Position numbers and translations under genes: made by a program. Below are positions 22,378 through 57,381 of a stretch of 64,000 nucleotides of DNA, one piece after another. Below the pieces are notes generated by a model. It was not told the DNA's origin. It searched no databases and worked only from the letters and a program-made list of their open reading frames with translations. Origin of the DNA: an uncultured Gammaproteobacteria bacterium (GTDB taxonomy: Bacteria; Patescibacteriota; Patescibacteriia; Buchananbacterales; UBA6539); the NCBI GenBank assembly GCA_964540635.1, contig CAZINP010000001.1, positions 93,364 through 157,363 on the forward strand. Direction: 5' to 3'. The first letter of the stretch is position 1. Each line of letters starts with the position of its first letter.

Positions 22378-22385
22378 AATTTGAC

Positions 22386-22727: not shown

Positions 22728-22736
22728 ATTGAAGCT

Positions 22737-39700: not shown

Positions 39701-39703
39701 TAT

Positions 39704-40426: not shown

Positions 40427-40449
40427 TAATCTAATTTACATTAAAAAAT

Positions 40450-41157: not shown

Positions 41158-41167
41158 AATTTGAGCT

Positions 41168-41851
41168 ATGAAGGTTTCCGTGGTAATCCCGGTCTATAAC
41201 GAACAAGAATATATTTTGAAAACAATTGAAGCCGTTAGGGCTCTGGATTTTGGTGGTTGGGAAAAAGAGATTATTGTGGTTGATGACGGTTCCAGTGATC
41301 GTACGCCGGATATATTAAAATCAGAGTCAGGGATAAAGATTATTTTGAGTGACAAAAATCATGGCAAGGGTCATGCGCTTGCCCTTGGCTTTAATCAAGC
41401 AACCGGCGATATTATTGCCATTCAAGATGCGGATCTGGAATATTGTCCTTCAAACTTAATCGGTTTAATCAACCAAATTGTTAACAATAAAGCTCAGGTG
41501 GTTTTTGGAAGCCGGATGAAGGGCAATAATCCAATAGGTCATTGGCGATATTATTTGGGCAATCTTTTTGTTTCTTTTTTGCTTAATTTATTTTTTAATG
41601 CCCGTCTGTCGGATGTTGAAACCGGGCATAAAGTTTTTCTCAGGTCAGTAATAAGTGATATTGATTTTAAGGAGAAGGGATTCGGTTTTGAAATAGAGTT
41701 TACGGCAAGGGTTTTAAGAAAAAAAATTTTAATAACCGAGATGCCAATTATCTATTCTCCTCGCAAATTTTGCCAAGGCAAAAAGATTAAATGGCTTGAC
41801 GGCCTGGAGGCAATTTGGTTGATAATAAAGTATCGTTTTATCAGGTTATGA
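41168..41851 (+). CDS. GT2 glycosyltransferase
   Basis: VIPVYNE ... VVDDGSSDRT ... QDADLEY. Confidence 0.7.
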   Translation: MKVSVVIPVYNEQEYILKTIEAVRALDFGGWEKEIIVVDDGSSDRTPDILKSESGIKIILSDKNHGKGHALALGFNQATGDIIAIQDADLEYCPSNLIGLINQIVNNKAQVVFGSRMKGNNPIGHWRYYLGNLFVSFLLNLFFNARLSDVETGHKVFLRSVISDIDFKEKGFGFEIEFTARVLRKKILITEMPIIYSPRKFCQGKKIKWLDGLEAIWLIIKYRFIRL

Positions 41852-43512
41852 CATTTTTTAGATTAATCCGGTCAATTCAGAAAAAGGAATGGCGCTTTGT
41901 CATTCTTTTGTCGTCGGTGCTTATTTTTATAACATCATTACCTTTAATTTTTGGCTGGCTAATCAGACCAATTAATACGCAATTTACCGGGGTTCATATG
42001 GCCATGCTTAACGATTGGTTTGTTTACTTTTCATACATTGAGCAAGTTAAGCAGGGTCATTTTTTATTACTTGATCTTTTTACCTCAGAGTCTCATCGGG
42101 CGGTATTTAACCCTTTTTGGTTAACGGTTGGTCTGCTGGCAAAATGTTTTAAATTATCAAATATTTTAGCTTTTAATTTTGTTAGAGTTTTGTTGATACC
42201 AATATTTGTTGGCCTAAGTTACTTGTTTGTTTCGATAATTTTTAATGATTTAAAAAAGAGAAGGGTTGCCTTATTAATTCTTTCGTTTTCTTCCGGTGCC
42301 GGCTTTTTATTGATTGATCGGCTGGTTCGTTTTCAAGGAAATTTTGTTGATGGTCGGTTTAATTGGCCAATGGATTTGTGGGTGCCGGAGTCAAACATTT
42401 TTGCAACTCTATACTACTCACCCCACTTAATTGCTTCTTTAATTTTAATTCTTTTTATTTTATTGTTTACAGTTTTGTTTGTTGACAATAAAAAAATAAT
42501 TTATTCGATACCAACCGGATTGGCATCTTTATTCCTAATTTTATTTCATCCGTTTCATGCCCTAACAATATTCAGCGTTATTTTGGTTTATCTAGGTTTA
42601 ATTATTCTGGTTAAGCGGCAAATAATTTGGTCATATATTTTTTATTATTTTATTATTGCCTTAATTTCTTTTCCGGCAATAATTTATTATTCCACCCTTA
42701 TCAGACATGATTATGTTACTCGACTGAAATATGTTCAAAATGTTTGTTTAACGCCGCCTTTTTGGATAACGGTTTTTGGTTTTGGGATTTTATTTTTTTT
42801 GGCGCTCGGTGGAATTTGGCTGTTGTTAAGAAAAAAGATGTCAAATTTAAAAGTTGATTCACCCTTGGTTTTTTTGGGTGTCTGGTTTTTGGTTCAGTTT
42901 TGTCTTTTGTTTTCACCCATTTTATTCCAGCGTCGACTGGTTGAAGGTTTGCATTTTCCAATGGTTGTTTTAAGTTTAATTGCTTGGTATTATTTTTATG
43001 AGCATTATTTGAAAGAAAAGAGCAAATTAAAACAATTAATTGACAATCAAAAAGAAGTAATTTTTATTTTTATCTTGATTTTTTTAAGTTTATCAAATTT
43101 CTTTCTTGTCTCCGGTGATATATATATGTATCAAAGTCGCAAAGAGTTTACATATATTGATAAAAGTTTAATTGAGGCGATGGATTTTTTAAAAAATAAA
43201 AAAAATAGTTTTGTTATTTTTAATACTTCACAGAATATTGTCAATATTGTCCCGGCCTTTACCGGTAAAAGTGTTTACGTCGGTCATGGCGTGGAAACAG
43301 TTAACTTCTTTTCAAAGCAAAATGAGGTTGATTGGTTTTTTGACACAAATCGTCAAGAAAAGATAGAAAAAGATTTTTTAGCAAACCGTTCAATTGATTA
43401 CATTTTTTATACCGATAAAGAGCAGCAACTTGGAGAATATGATCCTCAAGCTAAGGATTATCTCCAACTTGTATTTGAGAACGATAAAGTTAAAATATAT
43501 CAAGTTAAATAG
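41848..43512 (+). CDS. Polytopic membrane protein, GT-C-like, tandem paralog 1
   Basis: N-terminal multi-TM region and C-terminal soluble domain ending in KVKIYQVK. Start placed at the ATGA overlap. Confidence 0.5.
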   Translation: MTFFRLIRSIQKKEWRFVILLSSVLIFITSLPLIFGWLIRPINTQFTGVHMAMLNDWFVYFSYIEQVKQGHFLLLDLFTSESHRAVFNPFWLTVGLLAKCFKLSNILAFNFVRVLLIPIFVGLSYLFVSIIFNDLKKRRVALLILSFSSGAGFLLIDRLVRFQGNFVDGRFNWPMDLWVPESNIFATLYYSPHLIASLILILFILLFTVLFVDNKKIIYSIPTGLASLFLILFHPFHALTIFSVILVYLGLIILVKRQIIWSYIFYYFIIALISFPAIIYYSTLIRHDYVTRLKYVQNVCLTPPFWITVFGFGILFFLALGGIWLLLRKKMSNLKVDSPLVFLGVWFLVQFCLLFSPILFQRRLVEGLHFPMVVLSLIAWYYFYEHYLKEKSKLKQLIDNQKEVIFIFILIFLSLSNFFLVSGDIYMYQSRKEFTYIDKSLIEAMDFLKNKKNSFVIFNTSQNIVNIVPAFTGKSVYVGHGVETVNFFSKQNEVDWFFDTNRQEKIEKDFLANRSIDYIFYTDKEQQLGEYDPQAKDYLQLVFENDKVKIYQVK

Positions 43513-43514
43513 TT

Positions 43515-45176
43515 ATGAAAAAAATATTCAAACTTTTTGAGAAAAAAGAAGTAATTTTTTTAATGTTCATGACATTTATTATTGCGGTTTTGATTATGAC
43601 CCCCCTTATTATTGGATATTTGTTTGCACCGGCGGGATATACTTATAGCGGTATTGGCAGTTTAACTCCGGGTGACAATCCTGTTTACTATTCTTACATT
43701 AATCAAATAAAGAACGGACAATGGTTAATTAAAGATTTTTTTACCGGAGAGAGGCAAGATTACGGAATGTTTAATATTTTCTGGTTTTTGGCCGGAAAGT
43801 TTGCTTGGCTTTTTGATTTATCGCCAATTTTTACTTTTCATTTTTTAAAACTCTGCTTGTTACCTTTTTTTATTTTGACAGCCTATTGGTTTATTTCGTT
43901 TTTCTTTGAAGAAATTAAACAAAGACGCATCGCCACTTATTTTTTTCTTTTGGCCGGAGGTCTTGGCGCCTATATAATTTTGCCTCTGACCTACGCGACC
44001 GATTTAATGACAAAAAAAGGATACTGGACGCCAAATGATATTTGGATTCCCGAGTCCTTAGCTTTTTTGTCGCTTTATAAAACGCCACATTTTATTGCTT
44101 CGTGGATCATGATGATGCTGATTTTATTAATTCTGTTTTTGGCAATAAGTAGAAATAAACCCATTTTTTTTGTGGTTGGCGGTTTTTTGTCTTTGGTATA
44201 TTTTAACTTTCATCCGTTTTATGTCCCCATGATTTTTTTAACCAGCGGCGTTTATCTTTTGTATGAAATTTTCAAAGAGAAAAGAATATTGTGGAAAAAA
44301 TGTTTTTGGTTTTGCGTTTTTGTTTTGATTTCCAGTCCTTCAATTTTTTATCATGCTTGGCTTCTAAAAAAAGAACCGGCTTTAAGTTCGCGGGCTTGGC
44401 AGAATATTACTTTGGCGCCGCCCTTTATTTTTATTATTGTTGGGTACGGCTTTCTTTTTGTTTTTGGCCTTCTTGGAATTTATGGTTTATTTAAAACTAA
44501 AAAAATTAAAGATAACCATATATTCTTGTTAATTTGGCTTCTGGTTTCCATTGCTTTGGTGTTGGCTCCTTGGCAATTTCAAAGCCGTAATACGCAGGGG
44601 ATTCATTTGCCCTTGGCAATTTTTTCAGCTTATGGTTATTTATTTTTTAGAGATGGTCTATTTTTTAAAAATATTTTTGCGAAAGTAAAGTTTATTTTGA
44701 ATGACAAGTTTTTGATTTTTTTGTTTTTTATTTTAATCTTTTTTCCTTCAATTGCTTTTAATTTGGTTAGAGATATTTATTATTATGTTGCCAAACCCAA
44801 AGATGTTGTTGATTTATTCTTTGTAAACAACGAAAGACTGTTTGGTATTCATTTTTTAGATGAAGCCGATTCTGGCCAAGTAATTATCTCACACCCGTTA
44901 AATGGTTTATATGTTGGGGCACTAACCCAAAATAGATCATATTTTGCCCACCCGATTGAGACAACCGATTTTAAAAGTAAGTCGTTGTGGGTTTTGTGGT
45001 TTTATAAAGATAATAATCACGGACAAGAAAAGGAGAAGTTTTTGAGTGAAAATAATATTAATTACGTTTTTTACTCTTCTTTGGAGAAGGAGCTGGGTTC
45101 TTTTGAGCCTGGGACCCAAGACTATTTAAGTGAAGTTTATTCAAATGATGAAGTAAAGATATATAAAGTCAAATAG
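43515..45176 (+). CDS. Polytopic membrane protein, GT-C-like, tandem paralog 2
   Basis: Shares YYSYINQIKNGQ and WIPES motifs and the C-terminus EVKIYKVK with the neighbouring genes. Confidence 0.5.
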   Translation: MKKIFKLFEKKEVIFLMFMTFIIAVLIMTPLIIGYLFAPAGYTYSGIGSLTPGDNPVYYSYINQIKNGQWLIKDFFTGERQDYGMFNIFWFLAGKFAWLFDLSPIFTFHFLKLCLLPFFILTAYWFISFFFEEIKQRRIATYFFLLAGGLGAYIILPLTYATDLMTKKGYWTPNDIWIPESLAFLSLYKTPHFIASWIMMMLILLILFLAISRNKPIFFVVGGFLSLVYFNFHPFYVPMIFLTSGVYLLYEIFKEKRILWKKCFWFCVFVLISSPSIFYHAWLLKKEPALSSRAWQNITLAPPFIFIIVGYGFLFVFGLLGIYGLFKTKKIKDNHIFLLIWLLVSIALVLAPWQFQSRNTQGIHLPLAIFSAYGYLFFRDGLFFKNIFAKVKFILNDKFLIFLFFILIFFPSIAFNLVRDIYYYVAKPKDVVDLFFVNNERLFGIHFLDEADSGQVIISHPLNGLYVGALTQNRSYFAHPIETTDFKSKSLWVLWFYKDNNHGQEKEKFLSENNINYVFYSSLEKELGSFEPGTQDYLSEVYSNDEVKIYKVK

Positions 45177-45184
45177 AAATTTTT

Positions 45185-46843
45185 ATGATAAATTTGATAA
45201 AATCCATAACGAAATCTGAGTGGAAGCTGATTTTTCTTGTAACGGTTATTGTGATTATTTTAACCCAACTCCCTGTTGTTTTTGGTTATCTTAATTCAAC
45301 ATCAGAAAAGGCGTATATTGGCATTCACTCTCAGACCTCGGTTGATATTTTGGTTTATTTTTCTTACATCAAGCAAATAATGGGCAATAAATTTTTACTT
45401 CTTGATAATTTTACGGGAGAGATGCAAGACTATGGCACATTTAACATCGTTTGGTTTTTGGTCGGGCTTCTTGGCCGGGCTTTGGGCTTAACGCCTGGTA
45501 TTGCCTTTCATCTTGCTCGGGCCATATTGGCGCCATTTTTATTGATAACGGTATATATTTTTTTAAGCTATGTTTTTGAGGATAAATTCAGGAGACGTCT
45601 TGGTTTTATTTTTATTTCTTTTGCCTCCGGTCTTGGTTTTTACTTATTTCCACTTTTTTTGTCTGGGTTTTATGATCCAAATAATTTTTTCCGGCAAGCT
45701 TGGTGGCCACACGATTTATCTCAACCAGAGATTTCAATTTTTAATACGATTTATCAAAGCCCGCACTTTATATTATCTTGGATTTGCACCCTTTGGATTT
45801 TTTTATTTGCCCTGTTGGCATTTGAAAAAAGACGTCCGTCTTACGGTTTTTATGCCGGTCTGATTGCTCTGGCTTATTTTAATTTTCATCCCTATTTTAT
45901 TCCTTTGATATTTGGAGTAATAGGAGTTTATGGAGTCTATTATTTTTTAAAACATCGTTTATTTGATTTTAATTTATTATTTGGCTTTATTTTTGGGGCT
46001 GTTGTTGCCAGCCTTTCTATTGGTTATCATTTTTTTCTTTTAAAAAATAGCTATGTGATCTCGACTCGGGCAACTCAGAATGTGACATTGGTTTTTTATC
46101 TTTGGCCGGCAATTGTTGGCTTTGGCGCACAGCTACCATTTGCGTTTTTGGGTTTTGTTTGGGCCTATATTCGCAAGGAGCTAGATGATAAGTTTATATT
46201 TTTTACAATATGGCTTTTGGTTAGCATTATTCTTCTTTTCGCCCCGATTCAGTTTCAGTCAAGATATTTTCAGGGAATGCAATTTCCGTTGGTTATATTT
46301 ATTACTTATGGTTTGAATTTGCTTTGGCAATATTTAAAATCAAATTCAAATTTATCAAAAATAAAATTTTTAGTTAACCCGTATTTGATCACCTTGGTTT
46401 TTATTTTATTGTTTTGCATGAGTAATATTTTTAACCTTTTTAGGGATTATTACTATTGCACAAACAGACTTTCGCTATTTTATATTAACCGTGATGCTTT
46501 AAACGGGTTTAATTGGCTTGATCAGCAGCCCGATAAAAACAAATTGGTTGTTGCAAGAGAATATTATGGGCATCTTGTTCCGGGTTTTAGCGGAAATAAA
46601 GTTTATTTTGCACATGGTCACGAGACTTTATTTTACGACTCAAAAAAGATAGAAGTAAACAATTTCTTTTCTTCAAGCACCACCCAAGAAAAAAAATATT
46701 CCTGGCTTTTGGACAGAAATATTTCTTATATTTTTGATGATATGGAGGATGGTACGGTTGTTTCTCGCTTTGAGTCACTTCCTTATTTGAAAAAAGTTTT
46801 TGACGCGCCCAAGGCAAAGATTTACGAAGTGATTAAAGATTAA
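45185..46843 (+). CDS. Polytopic membrane protein, GT-C-like, tandem paralog 3
   Basis: Same architecture; C-terminus KAKIYEVIKD. Confidence 0.5.
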   Translation: MINLIKSITKSEWKLIFLVTVIVIILTQLPVVFGYLNSTSEKAYIGIHSQTSVDILVYFSYIKQIMGNKFLLLDNFTGEMQDYGTFNIVWFLVGLLGRALGLTPGIAFHLARAILAPFLLITVYIFLSYVFEDKFRRRLGFIFISFASGLGFYLFPLFLSGFYDPNNFFRQAWWPHDLSQPEISIFNTIYQSPHFILSWICTLWIFLFALLAFEKRRPSYGFYAGLIALAYFNFHPYFIPLIFGVIGVYGVYYFLKHRLFDFNLLFGFIFGAVVASLSIGYHFFLLKNSYVISTRATQNVTLVFYLWPAIVGFGAQLPFAFLGFVWAYIRKELDDKFIFFTIWLLVSIILLFAPIQFQSRYFQGMQFPLVIFITYGLNLLWQYLKSNSNLSKIKFLVNPYLITLVFILLFCMSNIFNLFRDYYYCTNRLSLFYINRDALNGFNWLDQQPDKNKLVVAREYYGHLVPGFSGNKVYFAHGHETLFYDSKKIEVNNFFSSSTTQEKKYSWLLDRNISYIFDDMEDGTVVSRFESLPYLKKVFDAPKAKIYEVIKD

Positions 46844-48803
46844 TTTCGCCCAAATCTATTTTCGGTCCAACACTTTGAGTTTTGTCAATTTTTATTCTTG
46901 TTGAGCGCCAAGGAGTAATAGTAAGCTGGCCGACTTCTATCTTTTCAATTTGTATAAATAAGCGACAGGGGTAATAAGGTTGCAAAGAAATAATTTTTAA
47001 CCAATGATTGGACTGAACATAAATTTGATTTAAGGTGTCGTTTTTGTTCAGCAGGCCATAATTAAATAATTGATATTTTTCGTATACAATTTTGTTATCT
47101 CTTTCGCAGGTAAGATGTTGCTGGTAGTCGGTGGCAAGAGGAGAATTAATTTTCCAAAATAGTTTAAGTTGATTGTTTACCGAATCAAATCCAAGAAAGT
47201 CTATTGAAGCATTAATTGATGCTTGTTTTTTTATTTTAATATCAGGCATTTCTTGATATATTTTTACTAAGTCTATTTGGTCACCCTCTCCGCGTTTTAG
47301 GATTGCTCCTTGGCTGTTGGCAAAGATTAAGCCAAAGCCCGAAAGGTTTTTTGTCCAATTTTCCACGGCGAGATCATATTCTTTAGCAAAGGCTTTATTT
47401 AGGCCATATTGAATTTTGTAAGAAAAAATATCTTGAAAATCAATAATAATATATTCAGTTGAGCTTGGCAGGGCATAGTCTTTGAGTAAAAATTGCTGTT
47501 TATTTAAGAAAACATAATTAAAAGAGTAAACTTCTTTTCTTGAGCTCAGCGGGGCTAAGAATTTATAGCTAGCGGCAACAGATGATTGTTTTGGTATCTT
47601 GTTTATTAATTCATTGTAGGCGGCGATTTCTTGCTTATCACTTGGTTTAAATAATTCTTGTGCCAAGCCGGGCAAGGGACCAAAACCAAAACCGCTATAA
47701 GCAACCGCAGCAATCACAATTACCAGTGTTAATTTTTTTTCCAAAAACAAATAATTTAAATATTTTGGCGGATGATAGTTGACGTCGGTAATAGCTTTTG
47801 TGCCAAATATCCAGGCAATAAAAATTCCTGGTAAAAGCAGGGCTGAATATTGAGTATATAAAATCATTCCTAAAAACATCCAATAAACACCGCTGACCAA
47901 TTGAATAAAAATTAAAGCACTCAGCAGTAGATAACGCGGCTTAAATAGTGACACATAAGCGCTAGGCAAAAGCAGGGCAGTAAAAAGAATTAAGCTTCCC
48001 GGGCTGAATATTTTTGGCAATATTAACCATGGGTGCAATAATAAATTTTTTATCATTTCATCAAGGCTGTTTCCCAGCCAAGAATAATAGAGAAGAAATT
48101 TATATGAACCGCTTAGGGAATAGTAGCTACTTATCTTGATTGCAAATATAAAATAAAAGACACTAAAAATAAACGGACAAATTATCCATTTAATTTTTTT
48201 TCTATCAAAGAGGGCTAGTATCGAAAAAACCACCATGACCAAAGCAACATCCTCGCGGCACATTAAACCTAAAGCCATTGCCAAAATAAATAAAGTAAAT
48301 TGATTTTTTTGGTAAAAATAAAAAGTCCAAAAAATCGCCAGAGTGGCAAAAGGCAAAAAACTTACTTCAAATAAATTAATATTTTGAACAAAGGGATTGA
48401 AAAGCCAAAGAAAGGCAAAGAGAAATCCCCAACCTGACCCCAATTTATTTTTGGCAATTAAATATATCGGTTGGGCGCAAAGAGCTAGGGTTAGCGTCTG
48501 AAGTAAAATTAAGAAGGTTGGTTGTGGCCAAAGTTTATAAAATGGTAATAATAAAAATAAAATCGGACTAAAGTGATCACCTAAATAAGTTGGCGGATGA
48601 ATACTTGAAGCAAAAAAGTTTCCGTGGCTGGAATTATAAAAAACATTATTAATAATGCCTAAGTCCATGGCCTCATACCCATAATGAAAATACTTTATTA
48701 AAACAATTGTACCAAAGGTGATTAAATAACCAATAACAAGTAATAAAGTAATTACCGGTTCGTATTTATATAAAAAATTTTTTAATTTTTGCCTTAAGTC
48801 CAT
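46833..48803 (-). CDS. Large polytopic membrane protein (DUF2079-like, putative GT-C-type)
   Basis: N-terminus EAMDLGIINNVFYNSSHG, followed by about 12 TM helices and a C-terminal domain. Confidence 0.45.
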   Translation of the reverse strand: MDLRQKLKNFLYKYEPVITLLLVIGYLITFGTIVLIKYFHYGYEAMDLGIINNVFYNSSHGNFFASSIHPPTYLGDHFSPILFLLLPFYKLWPQPTFLILLQTLTLALCAQPIYLIAKNKLGSGWGFLFAFLWLFNPFVQNINLFEVSFLPFATLAIFWTFYFYQKNQFTLFILAMALGLMCREDVALVMVVFSILALFDRKKIKWIICPFIFSVFYFIFAIKISSYYSLSGSYKFLLYYSWLGNSLDEMIKNLLLHPWLILPKIFSPGSLILFTALLLPSAYVSLFKPRYLLLSALIFIQLVSGVYWMFLGMILYTQYSALLLPGIFIAWIFGTKAITDVNYHPPKYLNYLFLEKKLTLVIVIAAVAYSGFGFGPLPGLAQELFKPSDKQEIAAYNELINKIPKQSSVAASYKFLAPLSSRKEVYSFNYVFLNKQQFLLKDYALPSSTEYIIIDFQDIFSYKIQYGLNKAFAKEYDLAVENWTKNLSGFGLIFANSQGAILKRGEGDQIDLVKIYQEMPDIKIKKQASINASIDFLGFDSVNNQLKLFWKINSPLATDYQQHLTCERDNKIVYEKYQLFNYGLLNKNDTLNQIYVQSNHWLKIISLQPYYPCRLFIQIEKIEVGQLTITPWRSTRIKIDKTQSVGPKIDLGEINL

Positions 48804-48879
48804 GATATTATATTAATATTAAATTGTATAAAAGACAATAAAAAAAATCGGGGAGAGCGTCCCCGATTTTTTGTAAATT

Positions 48880-49302
48880 TTATTCAATTCCACCGGCGCC
48901 GGTCGCAATCAATAAATTATCAATGACAAAGTAGGTAATAATATAGGCGCAAACTACAATGGCAACGCCAATAACAGCCGCACTGATAATACCTTTGGCC
49001 TTGCTAATTTTATCATCATTGCCAGCGGCTGTCATCCAGGTAAAGCCCGCATATAAAATTAGAACCAAGAATATAATTCCCAAAAAGCCTAGAGCGATTT
49101 TGACGATGTTAGAAATTGATTCAGCCAAGGTGTTTGAGGAAACGTCATCTTGACCGTATATATCTTTAACCGGTTCAAGTTGTTCACCGATTAAATTTCC
49201 AATTTCGTCCCCGGCCGCAAAAGTCAGGGCTGGCGCGATTGCCACTGTCATTAAGTTGATGGCCAAGATTAGGCCAATCAAGCTAAAAACTTTAAATTTC
49301 AT
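48880..49302 (-). CDS. Pilin-like two-helix membrane protein, paralog 1 (VirB2/TrbC-like topology)
   Basis: Signal peptide, variable region, TM1 ending in YAGFTWMTAAGNDDKISKAKGII, then TM2. Confidence 0.55.
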   Translation of the reverse strand: MKFKVFSLIGLILAINLMTVAIAPALTFAAGDEIGNLIGEQLEPVKDIYGQDDVSSNTLAESISNIVKIALGFLGIIFLVLILYAGFTWMTAAGNDDKISKAKGIISAAVIGVAIVVCAYIITYFVIDNLLIATGAGGIE

Positions 49303-49430
49303 AGGCTTTTATTTATATTTAATTTACTTTTTTATTATATCAAATTTTATATAGATTGACAAATAAGCTTAAATGTGGTAATATTTAATGTTTCTTGGTG
49401 TGAAAATAAGGCAAAATAGGAGAATCTGCC

Positions 49431-49805
49431 ATGAAAAAAGTGCTCTTTGCGGCTGTGGCCGCGATGGTGCTTGGCGTTGGATGCGCCACGGTACCAAATG
49501 AAAACCTGTTGCGCCAAGGCGCACTGGTTAACTACTGCACCGACAATGCGGTGGTGTTTCTGGTCGTCGGTGATTCCGGCGACGGGTCGGTTTGCACCAC
49601 GGTGCCCAAGGCCCTTAAAACGCCCGAAGGCATCAAACCCGGTGTCGCCCCCGTCAGCCTGTATGGGAAGCGGTACTACTGGGTCGAGACGACCAAGGTC
49701 GGGTGTCAGCACCCTTATCAAAAAGGGAATATCTGGGTGGACAAGTTTCGCTCCGATACCCAAATTGAGGGGGTAGCTTACGACTTCGGGATTTACGCCC
49801 GATAG
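49431..49805 (+). CDS. High-GC lipoprotein, hypothetical
   Basis: Lipobox LGVGCAT. GC about 58%. Promoter TTGACA-17-TAATAT at 49359-49387; SD aggaga. Terminator at 49839-49872. Confidence 0.55.
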   Translation: MKKVLFAAVAAMVLGVGCATVPNENLLRQGALVNYCTDNAVVFLVVGDSGDGSVCTTVPKALKTPEGIKPGVAPVSLYGKRYYWVETTKVGCQHPYQKGNIWVDKFRSDTQIEGVAYDFGIYAR

Positions 49806-49922
49806 TCAACACCTTCCACCGGTTTTACCCGAGGCGGAGCGCTCTTAGCGCCCCGCCTCTTTCTTTTGCTGGAATAAAAAAAGACGGGACGCTAGGTCCC
49901 GTCTCGGATAATTTTATAATGT

Positions 49923-50354
49923 TTAATCCAGGCCAGCCCCACCGCGCGTTGCCTCAAGGGCCTGATCAATAACAAAGTAGGTAATAACGTAAGCCATTAA
50001 AATTATAAGCAAACCAATGACTGCTCCTTTCATGATGGCCTTGGCTTTATCAATTTTTTCCTCATTGCCGGCTGAGGTCATCCATAAAAAACCGGAGTAT
50101 AAAATTAACAGAAAGAAAAGTAAGCCTAAAAACGAAAGCAGCATTTTAAGAACCGCGCTAACCATTGAGCCGATTGAATATTGAGTGCCAAGGCCGGAGG
50201 TTTCAATAAAAGCCTGATTTTGCTTATCCAGCTCAGCTTGAGATTCGCTGTCTAGGAGTTGCATCTCTTGCTGGGCCAAAGCCGGCATTGCCATAAAACC
50301 CAAAGCAAAAATCATGGCGGTTAAAATTAAATTTTTTAAAATTGTTTTTTTCAT
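49923..50354 (-). CDS. Pilin-like paralog 2
   Basis: YSGFLWMTSAGNEEKIDKAKAIM motif. Terminator hairpin at 49884-49910. Confidence 0.55.
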   Translation of the reverse strand: MKKTILKNLILTAMIFALGFMAMPALAQQEMQLLDSESQAELDKQNQAFIETSGLGTQYSIGSMVSAVLKMLLSFLGLLFFLLILYSGFLWMTSAGNEEKIDKAKAIMKGAVIGLLIILMAYVITYFVIDQALEATRGGAGLD

Positions 50355-50356
50355 AT

Positions 50357-50779
50357 TTATGAGCTATAAGGCACCGAGGAAGTGCCGCTGATTAACATAT
50401 TGGCGACAAAAGTGTAAATGGCGGCCGCACAGATGATAATAATAATTCCAATAATTCCATTCTTAATTATGCTCTTGGCTTTTTCAATTTTTTCCTCATT
50501 GCCGGCAGAAGTTAGATATAGGAAGCCGCCGTAGACGGTAAAAGAAACGAAGATTATGCCAATTAGGGAGATAACCGTTTTGACGATTGTGCCAACGACT
50601 CTGGACAGTCCGGTTTCGTCAACCGAGGTGTCATAACCGGCGCCATTGCTGCCAGCAGCTTGGTTTAAAACTGAATTTATTGTATCGGGTTGAGTCGCCG
50701 CGGTCGGACTTTGGGCCAAGACGCTAAATGGTATTGTAAGAGCAGCAATCAAGCAAACGAATAAAATAATTTTTTTCAT
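50357..50779 (-). CDS. Pilin-like paralog 3
   Basis: Start placed at MKKIILF. YGGFLYLTSAGNEEKIEKAKSII motif. Confidence 0.5.
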   Translation of the reverse strand: MKKIILFVCLIAALTIPFSVLAQSPTAATQPDTINSVLNQAAGSNGAGYDTSVDETGLSRVVGTIVKTVISLIGIIFVSFTVYGGFLYLTSAGNEEKIEKAKSIIKNGIIGIIIIICAAAIYTFVANMLISGTSSVPYSS

Positions 50780-50792
50780 AAGTATAAGAATA

Positions 50793-51236
50793 TTAATCGG
50801 TGGTTTCAAATGGCTCATCCGATTGTGAACCGACATTATAACTCGTGGCGCGCCCAACGCCATATATAACAAAGCGGGTAATGGCGTAGGCGGATAAAAC
50901 AATAATTAGGCCAATAATACTGCCGCGCAAGATTGACTTTGCTTTATCAACTTTTTCCTCATTGCCGGCTGAAATTAAGTAAAGGTAGCCGGCGTAAACC
51001 GTATAGGTTAAAAAAATTAGACCAAGAATTGATAAGAAGACATTTATAATCTGGCCGATTGTTTGGGCAATTGGTCTGGAGCCAAAACCGGCCGACGAAC
51101 CAACCGTAGCTAGTTTGCCGGATATATTAAGGGTGCTTGCAGTACTGCCGGTTGTCTGAGCAAGAGCGCCTAGAGGTATGGCAACCAAGAAGGTGAGTAA
51201 GAAAATTGCAATTAATTTTTTTTGGATTATTTTCAT
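50793..51236 (-). CDS. Pilin-like paralog 4
   Basis: Start placed at MKIIQKK. YAGYLYLISAGNEEKVDKAKSIL motif. Confidence 0.5.
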   Translation of the reverse strand: MKIIQKKLIAIFLLTFLVAIPLGALAQTTGSTASTLNISGKLATVGSSAGFGSRPIAQTIGQIINVFLSILGLIFLTYTVYAGYLYLISAGNEEKVDKAKSILRGSIIGLIIVLSAYAITRFVIYGVGRATSYNVGSQSDEPFETTD

Positions 51237-51237
51237 A

Positions 51238-51630
51238 TTATTTGATTGTTTTTTCAAGGCTGGTGGTGACAAAGTAACTGATGCCGTAAGCAGAAAGCAC
51301 GACAATTAAACCGACTACGGCTGCTTTAATGATGTCTTTGGCTTTTTCAATTTCATCTTCTCGGCCCATGGCCATTAACCATTTATAACCGCCATAAATT
51401 ATTAAAACCAGAAAAATAACACCCAAAAAGCTAAGAAAAACACTGATGGCCGAGCCAACAATATTTAAGGCTTTGGTGTCATCCGACCCGGTAGAGGGCA
51501 GGTTAACGGCACTTAGAGCCCCTTGCATTTGAGTGGTTATGCCACTTGCTGCCAAGCAACCTAGGGTGGGGACGGCAATAATTGTTGAGGCGAGAATCAG
51601 GCTGAAAAAGATTTTTTTGTATTTATTCAT
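51238..51630 (-). CDS. Pilin-like paralog 5
   Basis: YGGYKWLMAMGREDEIEKAKDII; a divergent member. Confidence 0.5.
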   Translation of the reverse strand: MNKYKKIFFSLILASTIIAVPTLGCLAASGITTQMQGALSAVNLPSTGSDDTKALNIVGSAISVFLSFLGVIFLVLIIYGGYKWLMAMGREDEIEKAKDIIKAAVVGLIVVLSAYGISYFVTTSLEKTIK

Positions 51631-51638
51631 AATTAAAT

Positions 51639-52049
51639 TTAAGCCGAAACACGGCCGATATTAATTAAGATGAATTCGGTAATTATTCTGGCAGAAATTA
51701 TGATTATCAAGCCAATAATAAATTGTTTAATCATCTCTTTGGCCTTTTCGATTTGTTCTTCATTGCCTTTAGCTGTCATCCACAAAAAGCCGGCATAAAT
51801 TACGCCCAACAAGAAAACGGTGCCCAAAAAAGTCAAAAGATAATTAACAATTTTCATTAAACTGTTTAAAAATGTGGTTTGATCAACCTTAACCGCCTGT
51901 CCGCCACCAATAGCCGTATCGGTGTAAGTTTTTACGCTTCCAGAAATTCGATCAAATACCGAAGCGGCATACAAACCGGGGGCAAAGGTTAATGCTAAAA
52001 ATAGGGAGATCAGTATTAAGGCGAATAAATGTTTTTTTAAATTTTTCAT
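51639..52049 (-). CDS. Pilin-like paralog 6
   Basis: YAGFLWMTAKGNEEQIEKAKEMI. Confidence 0.55.
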   Translation of the reverse strand: MKNLKKHLFALILISLFLALTFAPGLYAASVFDRISGSVKTYTDTAIGGGQAVKVDQTTFLNSLMKIVNYLLTFLGTVFLLGVIYAGFLWMTAKGNEEQIEKAKEMIKQFIIGLIIIISARIITEFILINIGRVSA

Positions 52050-52456
52050 GAGGTTTGAATAGTGGTTCCTAAAATAAATAAGGCGATTTCAACTATAATG
52101 CGTGCAGAGAGAATAATGGCTAAGCCGATAACGGCGTTAATCATAAGGCTCTTGGCTCTGGTTACCTGCTCTTCGTTGCCCTTGGCCATAAACCAAAGAT
52201 AGCCGGCATAAATGATATTTACCATAAAAAGCGCTCCCATTAGAAACAGCATGCCATTTAGGAAATTTACCCAAGCCGGAACAAATTCAATTGATGGTTT
52301 ACCGTCACTTCCTTGGCTGTATCCCGCACTTTTACCGGTGGCGGAAAATCCTTTGATAATTGTGTCAAAGGCGCTGGCCGAAGCGGCTTGGGCCCAAAGT
52401 AATCCAAAAGTTAAAATCGAAGCAGTATTAAAAATTTTTTGACCGATATTTTTCAT
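52046..52456 (-). CDS. Pilin-like paralog 7
   Basis: YAGYLWFMAKGNEEQVTRAKSLM. Confidence 0.55.
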   Translation of the reverse strand: MKNIGQKIFNTASILTFGLLWAQAASASAFDTIIKGFSATGKSAGYSQGSDGKPSIEFVPAWVNFLNGMLFLMGALFMVNIIYAGYLWFMAKGNEEQVTRAKSLMINAVIGLAIILSARIIVEIALFILGTTIQTS

Positions 52457-52459
52457 ATA

Positions 52460-52852
52460 TTAATTTCCGGTTGCTGCTTTAAGGGCGGCCAGCATGGTAT
52501 AAACCAAAGCGTATGAAAGAAAAATAACAATCATGCCGTTTATGCCGTTGACAATAAAGCCTTTGGCTTTGCCGATTTTCTCTTCGTTGCCGCCAGCTGT
52601 CATCCATAAGTAACCCCCAACCAAAGTAATTGTCATAAACACGACACCAACAACGGCAAACATATAATTTACAAATCGTCCGATTATTGTTGGCAGGTCG
52701 TTACTGGTTTTAAGGCCGGTATCGCCGGCAGTTTGATTGAGTCCGGCCTGGACCTGTCCCAAGCCGGTTGAGGCCGTGTCAGCTAAAACTAAACCCGGCA
52801 GAATAATTAGAGCCAGAAGACAGAAAATAAATATGTGTTTTTTAAATCTCAT
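52460..52852 (-). CDS. Pilin-like paralog 8
   Basis: VGGYLWMTAGGNEEKIGKAKGFI. Confidence 0.55.
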   Translation of the reverse strand: MRFKKHIFIFCLLALIILPGLVLADTASTGLGQVQAGLNQTAGDTGLKTSNDLPTIIGRFVNYMFAVVGVVFMTITLVGGYLWMTAGGNEEKIGKAKGFIVNGINGMIVIFLSYALVYTMLAALKAATGN

Positions 52853-52935
52853 GTCCGTAGTGTGTTAAAGGGGAGACCCCAGAAAAAACCGGCAGCCTCC
52901 CCTTGTTTTCGTATGTGAGTTAAGAAATTCTGAAA

Positions 52936-53295
52936 TTAGATTGCGCCAGTTGCGGTTAAAAGCTGAGAAATCACAAAGGTAGCCAAAGCGTAGGCCGTGA
53001 AAATAATTACCAAGCCGATAATGCCGGCAGTAATTACCTTTTTGGCTTCACCAACTTTTTCCTCATTGCCGCCGGAAGTCATCCACCTGAAGCCACCCCA
53101 GAGAATAATGATGATGGCTAAAATGCCCAAGAAGCCCAATAAAACGTTGACGACATTCATAACGCCCTCGCGAATATCATTGGTACCTAAGCCGGTGTAA
53201 GTGCCATATTCAATACCGGTGTCTAAAGCCAAAACCGGCATTACGCTTAAAGCGAATATGGTGGTTACGGTCATTAGGGTTGCGATTTTTTTCAT
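52936..53295 (-). CDS. Pilin-like paralog 9
   Basis: Start placed at MKKIATL with SD gggagg. WGGFRWMTSGGNEEKVGEAKKVI. Confidence 0.5.
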   Translation of the reverse strand: MKKIATLMTVTTIFALSVMPVLALDTGIEYGTYTGLGTNDIREGVMNVVNVLLGFLGILAIIIILWGGFRWMTSGGNEEKVGEAKKVITAGIIGLVIIFTAYALATFVISQLLTATGAI

Positions 53296-53423
53296 TTTTT
53301 TTGCACCTCCCTTCAAAACTTTTGTTTTGAAAAATTATTAAATTTTAATTAATATTCTTATCTAATTATAATAAATTATGTATAACTGTGTCAAACAATA
53401 GTTTTACCACAGTTATACATAAT

Positions 53424-54230
53424 TCATTCAGTAAAAAGGTTAGAGCAAGTGCAGCTGAAGTTTGTGCTGACCGCCTCACCAGCTTCATTTTGTCCGCCAA
53501 CCATCAATACATTACACGTGCAATCGGGGCAAGATTCGGCACAGCTGCTTTGACAAAGACTTTGAGCCTCACTGTATGTTATTTCTTTGTCGGTATAAGA
53601 AAAGCTACACCTGTGTTCTTCCCTTGTTTCATCTGCTTGAGGTGTTGGTTGAGCTTCTATGTTTGGCGCCACTGCCGTGTTGGGGTTTGATTGTGTATTT
53701 TCTGATGGCGTCTGTGAATTACTCTGACTTTGGGTGGCGCCAGAACCGGGTGATTCAATTTGTTGGGTTTGAAACCAATTTTGGTTAAAAATTTGAGCGG
53801 TGGCGCCAACTTGACCTTTGGTTAAAGCGGCGATGGTGGTATTTACGATTAACCAAGAAGTTAGCATGATTACCAGGCCGACAACGGCCGCGGTTATTGC
53901 TTGCTTGCCCTTTTCTATCATTTCCGGTTTACCGGCAGAAAGTATCCAGAGTACTCCGCCGTACAAAAAGGCCAAAAGCGCCAAGCTACCGGCTAGGCCG
54001 AGCAATAATTGTGTAAAATTTACTACTGTTTGCATTATTTCGTTAAGACCGCAATCATTGACATTTCCACTTGAAGCTCCGGTATCAGTACACTTGCTTG
54101 GTATTAATCTGCCGCCTGATATGCCGATGGCGGAAAGAAAAGCGTTACCTTCAGCGGCTAGGGCGGGAGTTATTAAAAATAAAAACCCAATTAAAATCAG
54201 GCCTACGGTCAAGAAGTGTTTTTTTCTCAT
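53424..54230 (-). CDS. Pilin-like paralog 10 with a C-terminal S/T/Q-rich linker and Cys-rich domain
   Basis: YGGVLWILSAGKPEMIEKGKQAI core. After it comes a roughly 130-aa extension with 9 Cys (CSFSY...CQSSCAESCPDCTCN...CTCS). Confidence 0.5.
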   Translation of the reverse strand: MRKKHFLTVGLILIGFLFLITPALAAEGNAFLSAIGISGGRLIPSKCTDTGASSGNVNDCGLNEIMQTVVNFTQLLLGLAGSLALLAFLYGGVLWILSAGKPEMIEKGKQAITAAVVGLVIMLTSWLIVNTTIAALTKGQVGATAQIFNQNWFQTQQIESPGSGATQSQSNSQTPSENTQSNPNTAVAPNIEAQPTPQADETREEHRCSFSYTDKEITYSEAQSLCQSSCAESCPDCTCNVLMVGGQNEAGEAVSTNFSCTCSNLFTE

Positions 54231-54246: not shown

Positions 54247-55638
54247 CTAGTAAGTTTGCTGAATTTTTTGAACCGCCAATTCAACCGCATCTTTTAATTC
54301 TTGGCCATTTCTGACCATTTCAATCATGGAATTAAAATTTTGCTGCATTGTTTGCGGATCTTTGCCTTGGTACCAGCTTTTAGCGGTTAAAAGTTGATCG
54401 GCAAAAACTTTTAATTTATCGTTTGCCTGTTGATCAGTAACCAGCGCGCGCAAAGCCGTGGGCTTGCCGGTGGCCGTAAGATACTTTTCCGCTTCGGCTT
54501 TTTTGGAGATGAATTGAACAAAGTCCCAAGCTTCATTGATATTTTTACTCTTTTTTGAAACGGTATTTATGCTGTAATTGGCAAAATTAATTTCCGGACG
54601 GCCTTCAATTTGCGGAATTTTGCTGATACCATAATTGAGCTTGCCGCCGCGCTTGGTTTCTAAATATTTAATGTCGCTGAAATAGCCAAAAATCATAGCG
54701 ACTCTGCCCTGGGCAAAAGCATCCAAAGAATTAGGAAATGAATCGTTCCAGGTATAGACTTCCCTTGAGGGGTTGGAAAAATCAGTAAAAAATCTGATGG
54801 CTTCCGGACCGGGATTGTAATTTTTTATTGTAATATCTTGTGGAACAACACCAAAAGTGACTTGATTGCCGGTTGTCATTTTTGCCCCATTCTGCATCAT
54901 AAGAAGTGATAAAATGTCGGCTGAATAATTAATGTTTTTTCCAGACCCCAAGGCCGCACCCGACTGAACCAATTCGCCGTTTTTATCTTGATAGGTCAAA
55001 GCCTTTACGTTTTGTTGCAAGGCCAGCCAATTGGTTGGCGGTAAAGGGATGCCGGCGTTATTCATCAGGTCGCGATTATAAAACATAACCAGGGTGTCCA
55101 TATAAAGCGGCAAGCCGTAGATTTTATCGTCCCTGACAACATCACCATAAACTACATCCAAATAAGCGTCTTTTAATTGAGACGGAGTAATACTTGTGTT
55201 TTCCCTGACTTCGGTGATAGTTTCTTCTTTGATATTTAAAGTTTTTTGAACATACTGATAAGCTACTTTGGTTTTGGCTGGCATGGGTTCAATCTTTGAA
55301 AGATATTTGGTAAGCAAGGTGTTGTTAATGGTGAAAATGTCCGGACCGCGATCTTCGGCCAAAGCATTGAGAAGCTCTTTCTCAAATTCTTCTTCCCTAA
55401 GCTTGCGATAGGTAATGGTGATGTGCGGGTGCTGGGCGCGATAATCGTTAATCATTTGTTCATAAGAAGTTGAGTCATCTTCAAAGCCCCACCAGGTCAG
55501 TTCAACCGGCTGCAGCGCTTGTTGTTCGGAGGGAGTAATAAAATTACAGCGAAAACCTGAGCCAAGCAAAAAAGAAATTAAGAGAAGTGAAACCGTGATT
55601 TTTAATTTTTTGTTTTTCATAAATTTATTCCAGACCAA
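54247..55638 (-). CDS. Extracellular solute-binding protein (family 1, sugar-type), lipoprotein
   Basis: Signal peptide and Cys; LTWWGFEDD...YRKL SBP_bac_1-like N-terminal half. No permease or ATPase genes adjacent. Confidence 0.6.
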   Translation of the reverse strand: MVWNKFMKNKKLKITVSLLLISFLLGSGFRCNFITPSEQQALQPVELTWWGFEDDSTSYEQMINDYRAQHPHITITYRKLREEEFEKELLNALAEDRGPDIFTINNTLLTKYLSKIEPMPAKTKVAYQYVQKTLNIKEETITEVRENTSITPSQLKDAYLDVVYGDVVRDDKIYGLPLYMDTLVMFYNRDLMNNAGIPLPPTNWLALQQNVKALTYQDKNGELVQSGAALGSGKNINYSADILSLLMMQNGAKMTTGNQVTFGVVPQDITIKNYNPGPEAIRFFTDFSNPSREVYTWNDSFPNSLDAFAQGRVAMIFGYFSDIKYLETKRGGKLNYGISKIPQIEGRPEINFANYSINTVSKKSKNINEAWDFVQFISKKAEAEKYLTATGKPTALRALVTDQQANDKLKVFADQLLTAKSWYQGKDPQTMQQNFNSMIEMVRNGQELKDAVELAVQKIQQTY

Positions 55639-55658: not shown

Positions 55659-56525
55659 TTAAATTATTTTTTTTAAATATTTTTTGAATTCATCTTTTAT
55701 GTCTTTGTCCTTAAGGCCGAATTCAACATTGGCTTTAAGCCAGCCAAATTTATTGCCCAGATCATAAACTTCGCCTTCAACAACTTTGGCATAAATTGGG
55801 CGCTTTTTAAGTAAATTGGCAATAGCATCAACCAGCCAGAGTTCGTTGTCTTTGCCTAATTTGGTATTCTCCAAAGCCTCAAAAATATCAGGAGTTAAAA
55901 TGTAACCGCCCAACGAACCAAGACGACTCTTAGTTTTTTCCGGACCGGGTTTTTCTACAATTGATTTTGATTGATAAACGCCGGGTTCAACCTCAATACC
56001 TTCAATGACCGCATATTTTTTAGTTCCTTCGTCATCAATTTCTCTGGCCGTGATCACGGGGTCGCCGTATTTTTCAAAAGTATCAATTAATTGGCGAATG
56101 TGAGGTTTTTTTCCGCAATTCCAAATATCATCTCCCCAAACAACGGCAAATGGTTCATTGCCAATGATTTGTTTGGCATTGAGGATTGGGGTACCGTTGC
56201 CGTAGGGTCCTTTTTGACGAATATAAATAAAGTTGGCCAGTTCCGCCACTTCTTTGATTGATTCGCACTGTTTGGTTTTTCCGGCCTTGGTTAAATAATT
56301 TTCTAAATATTCATTGCGATCAAAATGATCTTCTATTGCTCGTTTGGTTGAACCGGTAACTAAAATAACGTCAGTAATTCCGGCCTTGGTTGCTTCTTCA
56401 ACTATGTATTGAATGATCGGTTTATCTAAAACCGGCAGCATTTCTTTAGGTTGAGCTTTTGTCGCCGGTAAAAAACGTGTACCTAAGCCGGCAACAGGGA
56501 TGACAATTTTACGAATTTTGGCCAT
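55659..56525 (-). CDS. galU: UTP--glucose-1-phosphate uridylyltransferase
   Basis: KIVIPVAGLGTRFLPATKAQPKEMLPV N-terminal signature. Confidence 0.85.
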   Translation of the reverse strand: MAKIRKIVIPVAGLGTRFLPATKAQPKEMLPVLDKPIIQYIVEEATKAGITDVILVTGSTKRAIEDHFDRNEYLENYLTKAGKTKQCESIKEVAELANFIYIRQKGPYGNGTPILNAKQIIGNEPFAVVWGDDIWNCGKKPHIRQLIDTFEKYGDPVITAREIDDEGTKKYAVIEGIEVEPGVYQSKSIVEKPGPEKTKSRLGSLGGYILTPDIFEALENTKLGKDNELWLVDAIANLLKKRPIYAKVVEGEVYDLGNKFGWLKANVEFGLKDKDIKDEFKKYLKKII

Positions 56526-56694
56526 ATTGGATTTGCTTATGAGATTAAGAGGAGGTTTGAGTTGTTAAATTATTATCTTTTATCCTTAATTTTATTGTCT
56601 CAAGCATTTAAATTATAACAAAAAACCTTCAATTTGTAAAAAACGTTTAAATATGATAAGTTGTAGCTGTTCGTGCCTGCATCCCGTATAAATC

Positions 56695-56779
56695 GGAGGG
56701 GTGGCCGAGTGGTTGAAGGCGACGGTCTCGAACACCGTTTGGGCGCAAGTCCTCGCAGGTTCGAATCCTGTCCCCTCCG
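56695..56779 (+). tRNA. tRNA-Ser (anticodon CGA), class II with long variable arm, no encoded CCA
   Basis: Acceptor GGAGGGG/CCCCUCC, 3-bp D stem, anticodon stem ACGGU/ACCGU with loop CUCGAAC, long variable arm, T loop UUCGAAU. Confidence 0.8.
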
Positions 56780-56875
56780 ATTTATACGGGAAAACCGGTT
56801 TAAGGCCGGTTTTTTTAAATTGTTTTTTATTGGTTTTTTTGTTATATTTATTTAAGTTAATAATTAAAAAATATA

Positions 56876-57381
56876 TGAAAAAACTCTCTACCATTTTTTT
56901 GATTCTGCTTTTGTCGGTATTTTTTGCCGGTTGTTCCAAAGAGAAGGAAAAAGCAAAGGAATCTTTTGGCAGCCAAGATCTTAATTGTCAGGCGGTTTGC
57001 GCCAAAGCTTCATCGCTTTGCCCGACGATTATGCCCAATGAATTTTGTCTGCAGGCTTGCCCTTTTTGGAGCGATGAACAAAAGCAACAATTCAGTCAGA
57101 CCAAAAATTGTCAGGAAATGGCCGGCCTTGATGGTGATGAGGCAGAATCATCAAACCAAGAACAGGAAGATAATACTCAGGCTGACCAGAGTGATTGCGA
57201 ATTAGCTTGCTCTAATTATGCCCTTAAGTGCCTTTCTTCGTCTGAAGATACAAGTCAGGCGGCTTATAATCAAAAATTCTTTTCTTGCATCCAAGACTGT
57301 TCTGGCTGGAAAACAAGCAAGGCCGAGTGCGTGATCAATGCTTTGGACTGTTCTTCCATTACCAATGATTGTGATTTATAA
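56876..57381 (+). CDS. Cys-rich acidic lipoprotein
   Basis: Start placed at MKKLSTIFL; lipobox FAGCS; 16 Cys. The track's upstream extension overlaps the tRNA. Confidence 0.5.

Follow-up and report, generated by a model that had tools for sequence, protein, structure and literature searches.

A minus-strand array of ten genes at 48880-54230 in a 64-kb stretch of DNA (the window) is a chromosomal set of ten VirB2/TrbC-like propilin genes in a genome of the Patescibacteria (candidate phyla radiation, CPR), and all ten belong to the Pfam family PF18895 (T4SS_pilin, named for the type IV secretion system, T4SS). On sequence comparison we favour the view that these pilins are an old, fixed and ordered set of sub-functionalised subunits that are under purifying selection and are not interchangeable, because their one-to-one orthologues are colinear in related genomes, their leaders can be aligned between orthologues and few amino acids have changed between strains. 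Arrays of this kind have already been published, and this one falls within the definition of a Patescibacteria VirB2-like array (2-11 pilin genes, in tandem or split by a single non-pilin gene); what is new here is the evidence for a fixed, ordered and co-expressed set, a probable major subunit and companions that are not T4SS genes.

The genes were taken from a listing of open reading frames (ORFs) at 47.5-56 kb, with starts placed at ATG codons behind Shine-Dalgarno sites, and encode proteins of 119-268 aa. They are numbered in the direction of transcription, the reverse of the order in a preliminary description of this DNA, whose paralogue 10 is gene 1 here. The array starts with gene 1 (53424-54230; 268 aa, 41.9 bits against PF18895), followed by gene 2 (52936-53295; 119 aa, 45.1 bits), gene 3 (52460-52852; 130 aa, 37.3 bits), gene 4, which begins 3 nt past gene 3 (52046-52456; 136 aa, 34.6 bits), gene 5, whose start overlaps the gene 4 stop by 4 nt (51639-52049; 136 aa, 39.1 bits), gene 6 (51238-51630; 130 aa, 36.4 bits), gene 7 (50793-51236; 147 aa, 44.8 bits), gene 8 (50357-50776; 139 aa, 44.0 bits), gene 9, which closes the packed block (49923-50354; 143 aa, 29.2 bits), and gene 10 (48880-49302; 140 aa, 37.1 bits). 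With a gathering score of 26.6 bits for PF18895 and near-full coverage of the 71-position model, all ten products pass (29.2-45.1 bits), and their membership of the family is thus not due to chance. The TrbC/VirB2 model PF04956 (gathering score 27.9 bits) is passed by gene 2 alone (32.0 bits, E = 1.5e-7) and has no match at E <= 0.01 in the other nine; close homologues of gene 2 carry both families in precomputed tables, and its nearest named homologue is a 'TrbC/VirB2 family protein' of Ca. Buchananbacteria (86% identical). Gene 2 also exceeds the 40-bit cutoff of NCBIfam NF045849, the Mbov_0395 family of pilin-like conjugal transfer proteins, with 43.0 bits; eight of the other pilins score 16-39 bits and one is unmatched. 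The preliminary description was thus right to see ten two-helix proteins with a common module and a likeness to VirB2/TrbC-type propilins.

The ten proteins are only 31% identical to one another on average (range 20-41%), with 23% identity in the signal peptide and leader and 35% in the module, and their DNA likeness is confined to patches of 28-146 nt at 68-86% identity. Repeat searches detected no tandem or dispersed DNA repeats in the array. The low paralogue identity and the lack of DNA repeats exclude an assembly collapse or a recent duplication, and the array is not a matter of simple gene dosage, as already held in the preliminary description.

Alignment of the ten pilins confirms the shared module, with the consensus ILYGGFLWMTAAGNEEKIxKAK (position by position, ILYGGFLWMT[SA][AG]GNEEKIxKAK), around only five invariant columns (three Gly, one Lys and one more Gly). 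According to a table of hydropathy and motifs, all ten proteins begin like a signal peptide, with an AxA-type site, and continue with a pair of hydrophobic helices that flank a polar loop of ~10-14 residues; with a predicted signal peptide, two such helices and a short polar loop, all ten have the propilin plan. The inter-helix loop is the most conserved part of the module and is divergent in gene 6 (GREDEIEKAK). It had been described as basic, which is incorrect: the loop is of mixed charge (NEEK..KAK), with a net charge of -2 to +1. In nine of the ten pilins the leader has ~12-35 residues and the C-terminal tail 2-22 residues. The AlphaFold2 (AF2) model of the gene 2 product (pLDDT 77) consists of a signal helix, a helix at residues 38-73, a loop at 74-77 and a second helix at 78-116. 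The membrane topology of VirB2 and F-type pilins is established, and by analogy with it we infer that the leader and the C-terminus of the pilins encoded here face outward and the loop inward. The outward position of the C-terminus is supported indirectly: the same module heads giant ORFs in 24 of 80 related loci, and in the one scanned, L019, adhesin-type domains lie downstream of it (L labels denote related loci compared with the window). Type IV pilins and pseudopilins of the type II secretion system (T2SS) were rejected as candidates: a class III signal, the G/[FM]T[LV][IL]E N-methylation motif and a PF07963 match are absent in all ten proteins.

The largest pilin, that of gene 1, has a signal peptide, a leader with two conserved Cys and the hairpin, and beyond these a linker of low complexity and, at the C-terminus, ~60 aa that form a Cys-rich domain. 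The extra Cys-rich domain noted for this member in the preliminary description is therefore present; it lies C-terminally, after the second helix, and is unique to this lineage. The orthologues of gene 1 in the four closest loci (L001, L002, L003 and L057) have 152-173 aa and no such tail, and among 1.84 billion representative proteins the tail has no homologue other than itself. In the AF2 model residues 62-155 form the hairpin, with pLDDT values of ~64-86 in blocks of 10 residues that peak towards its centre; residues 159-206 are a disordered linker, and residues 207-268 fold, with low to moderate confidence, into a small alpha/beta domain. A Logan assembly made independently from this population is interrupted at 53568, within the linker and Cys-rich tail, and the protein collection contains a 262-aa call but not the exact 268-aa product; there may be strain heterogeneity in this tail.

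Related arrays were collected by a pattern scan with three of the paralogues over one genome per species, which gave 480 confirmed relatives, of which the best 80 were kept. Those of the best 80 that carry informative labels come from metagenome-assembled genomes of Patescibacteria, namely Buchanan-, Magasanik-, Uhr-, Falkow-, Komeili- and Kerfeldbacteria, which we take to be members of the GTDB class ABY1; the other records have labels that say nothing of the lineage or are evidently wrong. A hidden Markov model of the module found at least four pilin genes in 52 of the 80 loci, with a maximum of 15. The four closest loci have 10-11 pilin genes in the same order as in the window, and colinear reciprocal best hits with the window's genes were obtained for all ten in L002 and L057, for nine in L003 and for eight in L001. 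Orthologues are 40-83% identical, as opposed to 20-41% for paralogues; the ranges are 42-58% for gene 3, 40-61% for gene 4 and 52-60% for gene 10. The leaders, previously described as non-alignable, are so between paralogues but align well between orthologues, with 31-47% identity (88% for gene 2), compared to 54-65% in the module (90% for gene 2). The order of GalU, a solute-binding protein (SBP), the array, a DUF2079 protein and a membrane glycosyltransferase is also kept in the four closest genomes. Beyond these four loci orthology with the window's genes becomes blurred.

Over 10.6 kb, a strain contig (L081, from Logan run SRR8925758) shares 98.98% of its DNA sequence with the window. In the pilin genes the two strains differ by 40 nucleotide substitutions, 36 of which leave the protein unchanged. 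The four amino acid changes fall in two signal peptides, one leader and one C-terminal tail, and none in a hairpin; pilin 5 has 8 nucleotide and no amino acid changes and pilin 10 has 22 and one. These counts give a rough dN/dS estimate of ~0.03-0.04 for the pilins, obtained from a strain pair instead of from species, since genes whose proteins are 40-60% identical have saturated synonymous sites. The differences from this contig lie in two tracts, 47800-49700 (covering pilin 10, 5' sequence of the DUF2079 gene and one half, the 5' one, of a lipoprotein gene) and 51000-52200 (pilins 5-7), and the surrounding 5 kb on each side are identical; both tracts look like recombination imports.

The arrangement of transcription signals suggests that genes 2-9, which are packed behind one promoter and followed by a terminator, are co-transcribed. 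The promoter-like site of gene 2 (53365-53394, minus strand) is of the sigma-70 type, TTGACA-18-TATAAT, with 12 of 12 consensus matches; in L002, L003 and L057 the gene 2 orthologue has the same TTGACA-N18-TATAAT upstream of it, and in L001 a site that nearly matches (TTTACA..TATAAT), so that the promoter is perfect in four of the five genomes compared. A leader of ~70-95 nt follows, in which there are a hairpin and a strong Shine-Dalgarno site (GGAGG/GGGGG). Across the window (53296-53362, minus strand) and the four closest loci the sequence of this hairpin varies while its pairing is kept, with covariation judged by eye; the hairpin may stabilise the mRNA or have a regulatory role. Just 3' of gene 2 there is a G+C-rich stem-loop (GGGGAGGCUGCCGG...CUGGGGUCUCCCC, 52868-52904, minus strand) in a 101-nt intergenic stretch with a fold energy of -27.7 kcal/mol (z = -3.3), and the stem GGGGAGACC...GGGGUCUCCCC is kept 3' of the orthologous gene in all four related genomes, hence in five of five with the window. 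This element could be an attenuator or an mRNA-stabilising structure. Genes 3-9 are spaced by -4 to +16 nt, and gene 9 is followed by an intrinsic-terminator-like hairpin (49881-49905, minus strand; 10 pairs, 6 of them GC, then TTTTTATT), which reads on both strands and also ends the lipoprotein gene on the opposite strand.

Pilin gene 10 apparently is a transcription unit of its own. Back-to-back promoter-like sites at 49334-49385 serve this gene (TTGTCA-17-TATAAT, minus strand) and the lipoprotein gene (TTGACA-17-TAATAT, plus strand), and a bidirectional terminator-like hairpin of 13 pairs with T-runs on both strands (48842-48872) lies past pilin gene 10. At the other end, gene 1 abuts the SBP gene; GalU, the SBP gene and gene 1 are probably transcribed as one unit.

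Gene 2 is probably the major subunit, and genes 3-9 would then encode less abundant, specialised partners. The candidacy of gene 2 is based on its conservation of ~80%, its perfect promoter, the conserved 3' stem-loop, its raised G+C content at third codon positions (GC3), its distant counterparts and a second copy. It is 80-83% identical to its orthologues in the four closest loci, compared to 40-61% for the other pilins; it is thereby as conserved as the flanking enzyme GalU (77-79%) and more so than the SBP (61-64%) and the DUF2079 protein (38-43%). Its GC3 of 0.53 is the highest of the four pilin genes measured (0.40-0.43 in the other three), and of 45 more distant arrays, most have a gene 2-type member that is still a reciprocal best hit. 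An eleventh, solo pilin gene lies ~3.4 kb past the right end of the window (L082, 6281-6649); its 122-aa product matches both PF04956 and PF18895 and is 70% identical to gene 2. This gene adjoins one for a 754-aa protein with only a faint Pfam match to an Ig-like domain.

With moderate confidence, we propose that the array supplies a fixed multi-subunit VirB2-like set, which a T4SS with genes in another part of the genome would assemble into a pilus-like or conduit-like structure for host contact. Each propilin would be exported by a Sec-type route, lose its signal peptide and insert as a helical hairpin, with the variable N-terminal leader and the C-terminus exposed outward and the conserved loop G-N-E-E-K-x-x-K-A-K in the cytoplasm, or in the lumen of any filament that is formed. 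The ten subunits would be made together, gene 2 dominating and the other nine being specialised components; genes 1 and 10 would be expressed from the neighbouring transcription units, with the Cys-rich domain of gene 1 exposed outward. The T4SS would extract the subunits from the membrane and build a pilus-like or conduit-like envelope structure, to be used for contact with host cells, as proposed for the pilin array of S. epibionticum. Family membership, the features of the topology, colinear orthology, purifying selection and the transcription signals are observed, and it is filament assembly, the major and minor roles, dependence on a T4SS and a host-contact function that we infer.

Several observations weigh against this proposal. 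As the preliminary description had stated, no genes for VirB4, VirB6, VirD4 or other T4SS ATPases, channel or coupling proteins are present in the window (Pfam search of ~70 ORFs), and no T4SS machinery was found in ~10 kb beyond its right end (two Logan contigs); nor did the 265 large ORFs around the 80 related arrays include a conserved VirB4-like neighbour. The dependence of the array on a T4SS is thus argued by analogy. No pilus has been reported in the literature for any member of the Patescibacteria. A profile search of the PDB sequences for solved pilins returned only designed repeat proteins (E ~2), and fold searches were uninformative, a helical hairpin matching thousands of unrelated structures. 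The stem-loop after gene 2 is without a clear U-tract and its role is thus uncertain, promoters and terminators were recognised by likeness to a consensus only (31 promoter-like sites as against 19 expected by chance), and the assignment of major and minor subunits comes from conservation and sequence signals.

The ten pilins could instead be a repertoire of alternative surface subunits that vary the exposed surface or match different host strains, as the preliminary description implied in speaking of a diversifying surface-protein family. The idea has been put forward for Patescibacteria arrays (PMC12102498), and the same has been proposed for the virB2 paralogues of Anaplasma and Bartonella. 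It would account for outward leaders that cannot be aligned between paralogues and are less similar than the module (23% versus 35% identity), for a promoter-like site of pilin 10's own, and for the clustering of strain differences at pilin 10 and pilins 5-7. However, orthology is colinear and one-to-one over five genomes with no turnover, the clustered strain differences are nearly all synonymous (36 of 40), genes 2-9 form a single packed unit with reading frames that overlap or nearly abut, there are no long identical tracts for gene conversion, and no invertible or repeat elements were found. We therefore consider variation rather improbable, and the diversifying character that had been suggested is not supported by these comparisons. 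Diversity-generating retroelements and phase variation were also rejected: the array has no repeats, and the Pfam matches include neither a reverse transcriptase nor an invertase. The coordinated expression and distinct specificities that had been suggested for the pilins are plausible.

Another explanation retains the hairpin and discards the filament: the module could be a general envelope anchor of Patescibacteria that keeps ectodomains, short or long, at the cell surface independently of any T4SS, in which case 'pilin' would be a misnomer. There are no T4SS genes near the window's array or the 80 related arrays, the module heads giant ORFs in 24 of those 80 loci (with adhesin-type domains in L019), gene 1 has an additional C-terminal domain and the neighbouring genes are those of envelope glycosylation. 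Against this, hardly any ectodomain is present in nine of the ten pilins, as seen from the lengths of their leaders and tails. Besides, the loop between the helices is the most conserved part, suggesting a specific partner or lipid contact, gene 2 passes the TrbC/VirB2 model, and the array of S. epibionticum lies inside a T4SS cluster and is essential (PMC10633639). This possibility is unlikely in our estimate. Other small membrane proteins, such as holins, bacteriocin immunity proteins and membrane peptides of toxin-antitoxin systems, resemble the pilins in small size and two transmembrane helices, and weak Pfam matches to FixQ, DUF996 and Yip1 were seen. All of these matches are below threshold, as opposed to PF18895, which is above it in ten of ten. 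A predicted cleavable signal peptide is not a feature of holins, and the array lies among conserved housekeeping and envelope genes (GalU, SBP, DUF2079, glycosyltransferases) with no phage or bacteriocin genes nearby. This explanation is extremely improbable: no holin or immunity protein family of Pfam or NCBIfam is matched, which effectively refutes it. Nor are the paralogues near-identical, so neither of the two findings that the preliminary description named as refuting it was obtained.

The window covers the chromosomal origin region, with yidC, rnpA, dnaA (23123-24496) and dnaN within 21391-25913, ~25 kb from the array; T4SS genes lie near dnaA in other Patescibacteria classes (PMC12102498). 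It also encodes a class A penicillin-binding protein, RuvC, YebC, PGI and thymidylate kinase. Downstream of the array, an envelope-glycosylation block (36900-48803) contains genes for two large polytopic membrane proteins, three enzymes similar to glycosyltransferase family 2 (GT2), three polytopic paralogues of ~550 aa without any Pfam match, and the DUF2079 protein; the last four genes of this block are syntenic with the array in four related genomes. An Rfam scan of the window found a single tRNA (56695-56779, plus strand) and no known structured RNA in the GC-rich island. The tRNA overlaps the start of the ORF at 56701-57381, which may be spurious or shorter than listed.

Upstream of the array, only 16 nt from pilin gene 1, lies a minus-strand gene (54247-55638) for a protein similar to family-1, carbohydrate-type SBPs (PF01547 SBP_bac_1, 100 bits), with weak similarity to GanS/MalE; there are no adjoining genes for ABC permeases or ATPases in the window. 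It is preceded by a gene for a GalU-like UTP-glucose-1-phosphate uridylyltransferase (55659-56525, minus strand; PF00483, and TIGR01099 galU at 315 bits, below the cutoff of 326.8), which heads the conserved GalU-SBP-array block and has a promoter-like site at 56612-56640. Among the 52 multi-gene arrays, an SBP homologue is encoded on the same strand within 3 kb in 39 and GalU in 32, and GalU lies upstream on the same strand in 29 of the 52; this suggests a functional tie of both genes to the arrays. In addition, many related arrays contain a gene for a glycolipid glycosyltransferase of the GT28 type similar to monogalactosyldiacylglycerol (MGDG) synthase before the last pilin gene, e.g., L023 (11776-12900); similar genes occur in L007, L013, L027, L032, L036, L044, L055, L058, L061, L065 and L067. 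Neither the SBP and GalU link nor that of the MGDG-synthase-like gene is mentioned in the T4SS survey (PMC12102498).

It is conceivable, if quite improbable in our view, that the array, the orphan SBP lipoprotein and GalU, together with the MGDG-synthase-like gene in relatives, encode a VirB2-like tube or envelope structure of fixed composition that is uncoupled from T4SS ATPase genes, contains glycolipid or glycosylated subunits and serves a monoderm cell as a conduit for nutrients or host contact, with the same module also tethering giant adhesins. If true, such a glycan-associated conduit uncoupled from a T4SS would be a new use and a new architecture of conjugative-pilin proteins, unlike a conventional T4SS pilus.

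The module also occurs in much larger proteins. In 24 of the best 80 loci it forms the N-terminus, at residues ~45-135, of giant ORFs, which range from 1,245 aa to over 3,400 aa, for example in L019 (9956-20017), L004 (9896-20278) and L041 (9935-19969). The giant ORF of L019, the one that was scanned, contains the adhesin-type domains TIG, Big_5 and DUF4215. Such an ORF is usually preceded by one for a second module-bearing protein of 600-900 aa. We found no published description of the PF18895 module heading giant ORFs.

The ten pilin genes had been called consecutive; all are indeed on the minus strand, but genes 9 and 10 are split by a plus-strand gene for an orphan lipoprotein of 124 aa (49431-49805, MKKVLFAAVAAMVLGVGC...). 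This gene has a promoter-like site and a Shine-Dalgarno site of its own and is unusually GC-rich, with a GC content of 0.57 and a GC3 of 0.68, compared to a GC3 of 0.30-0.43 in most of its neighbours. Its product has no Pfam or NCBIfam match and only three homologues among 5.8 billion proteins. GC-rich lipoproteins are encoded in the same slot on the opposite strand in L001 (10643-11110), L002 (10741-11322) and L003 (6934-7515), and on the same strand in L044 (12597-13124); L057 is without any. The GC3 of these positional genes, including that of the window, is 0.58-0.68; their products are barely alignable, with marginal pairwise similarity. Between the window and the strain contig ~12 residues of the lipoprotein have changed, as against one in the neighbouring pilin 10, and no target-site duplications were found around the insert.

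Patescibacteria make up a very large and mostly uncultured share of bacterial diversity and appear to live attached to host cells, and their T4SS with its pilin array proved essential in the single species examined for this. A ten-gene array that can be a stable, ordered and co-expressed set with one dominant conserved member shifts the working model from antigenic variation to a defined multi-subunit assembly. It also provides testable companions, the binding lipoprotein, GalU and the glycolipid synthase genes in relatives, and thereby leads for work in tractable Saccharibacteria and for hetero-oligomer modelling.

The closest known systems are the arrays of other Patescibacteria. A search of 3,035 Patescibacteria genomes with PF18895 and PF04956 found VirB2 arrays in 383 assemblies, 441 in all and with 2-11 genes each; their within-array identity was 25% on average and 54% at most, and pilins lay away from virB4 in ~40% of the assemblies (Quinonero-Coronel et al. 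2025, PMC12102498). In Southlakia epibionticum ML1 the T4SS cluster includes a six-gene pilin array, which is essential (Wang et al. 2023, PMC10633639; PMC12857230). A pilin array has been described as a unique feature of the monoderm T4SS (2025 review, PMC12857230), and the function of the Patescibacteria T4SS with its pilin array as completely unknown (PMC11665869). The window's array shares with these arrays, including that of S. epibionticum and the 'Sec-secreted array' of Nanosynbacter lyticus TM7x, the same Pfam families, the phylum, the tandem form and a similarly low within-array identity (mean 31%, maximum 41%), i.e., a shared structure with diverged sequence; its ten genes are at the upper end of the size range. 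In contrast to the array of S. epibionticum, it is not beside virB4 or any other T4SS gene, and whereas the published arrays are commonest in Microgenomatia and Saccharimonadia, it belongs to the group of Buchananbacteria, Magasanikbacteria and Uhrbacteria. Colinear orthology, a candidate major subunit with a promoter and stem-loop, and linkage to GalU and an SBP are not mentioned in the papers on Patescibacteria arrays that were consulted.

The pilins of Agrobacterium (VirB2), RP4 (TrbC) and F (TraA) have the same plan of a long signal peptide, two helices and a short polar loop, but are encoded by one or a few genes inside a T4SS operon of a diderm host, whereas the window's host is monoderm. 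C-terminal processing or cyclisation and co-assembly with phospholipid are features of those pilins. The virB2 paralogues of Anaplasma phagocytophilum, Ehrlichia and Bartonella are likewise tandem, diverged, chromosomal and apart from part of the T4SS machinery. They are read as antigenic or host-range variants that are differentially expressed (cited in PMC12102498), in contrast to the stable, co-transcribed set under purifying selection to which the evidence points here. The Mbov_0395 family (NF045849) of a Mycoplasma integrative and conjugative element (ICE) also comes from a monoderm host, and gene 2 is above its cutoff; this likeness fits the MPF-FATA ancestry reported for the Patescibacteria T4SS (PMC12102498). 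Mbov_0395 is, however, a single gene on a mobile element, whereas the window's array has no ICE context and nine of its ten members score below the cutoff. Finally, although they belong to an unrelated protein family, the major and minor subunit sets of type IV pili and T2SS pseudopili offer a functional analogy, in that one abundant, conserved subunit is encoded together with several diverged subunits of low abundance, each of them conserved in its own right.

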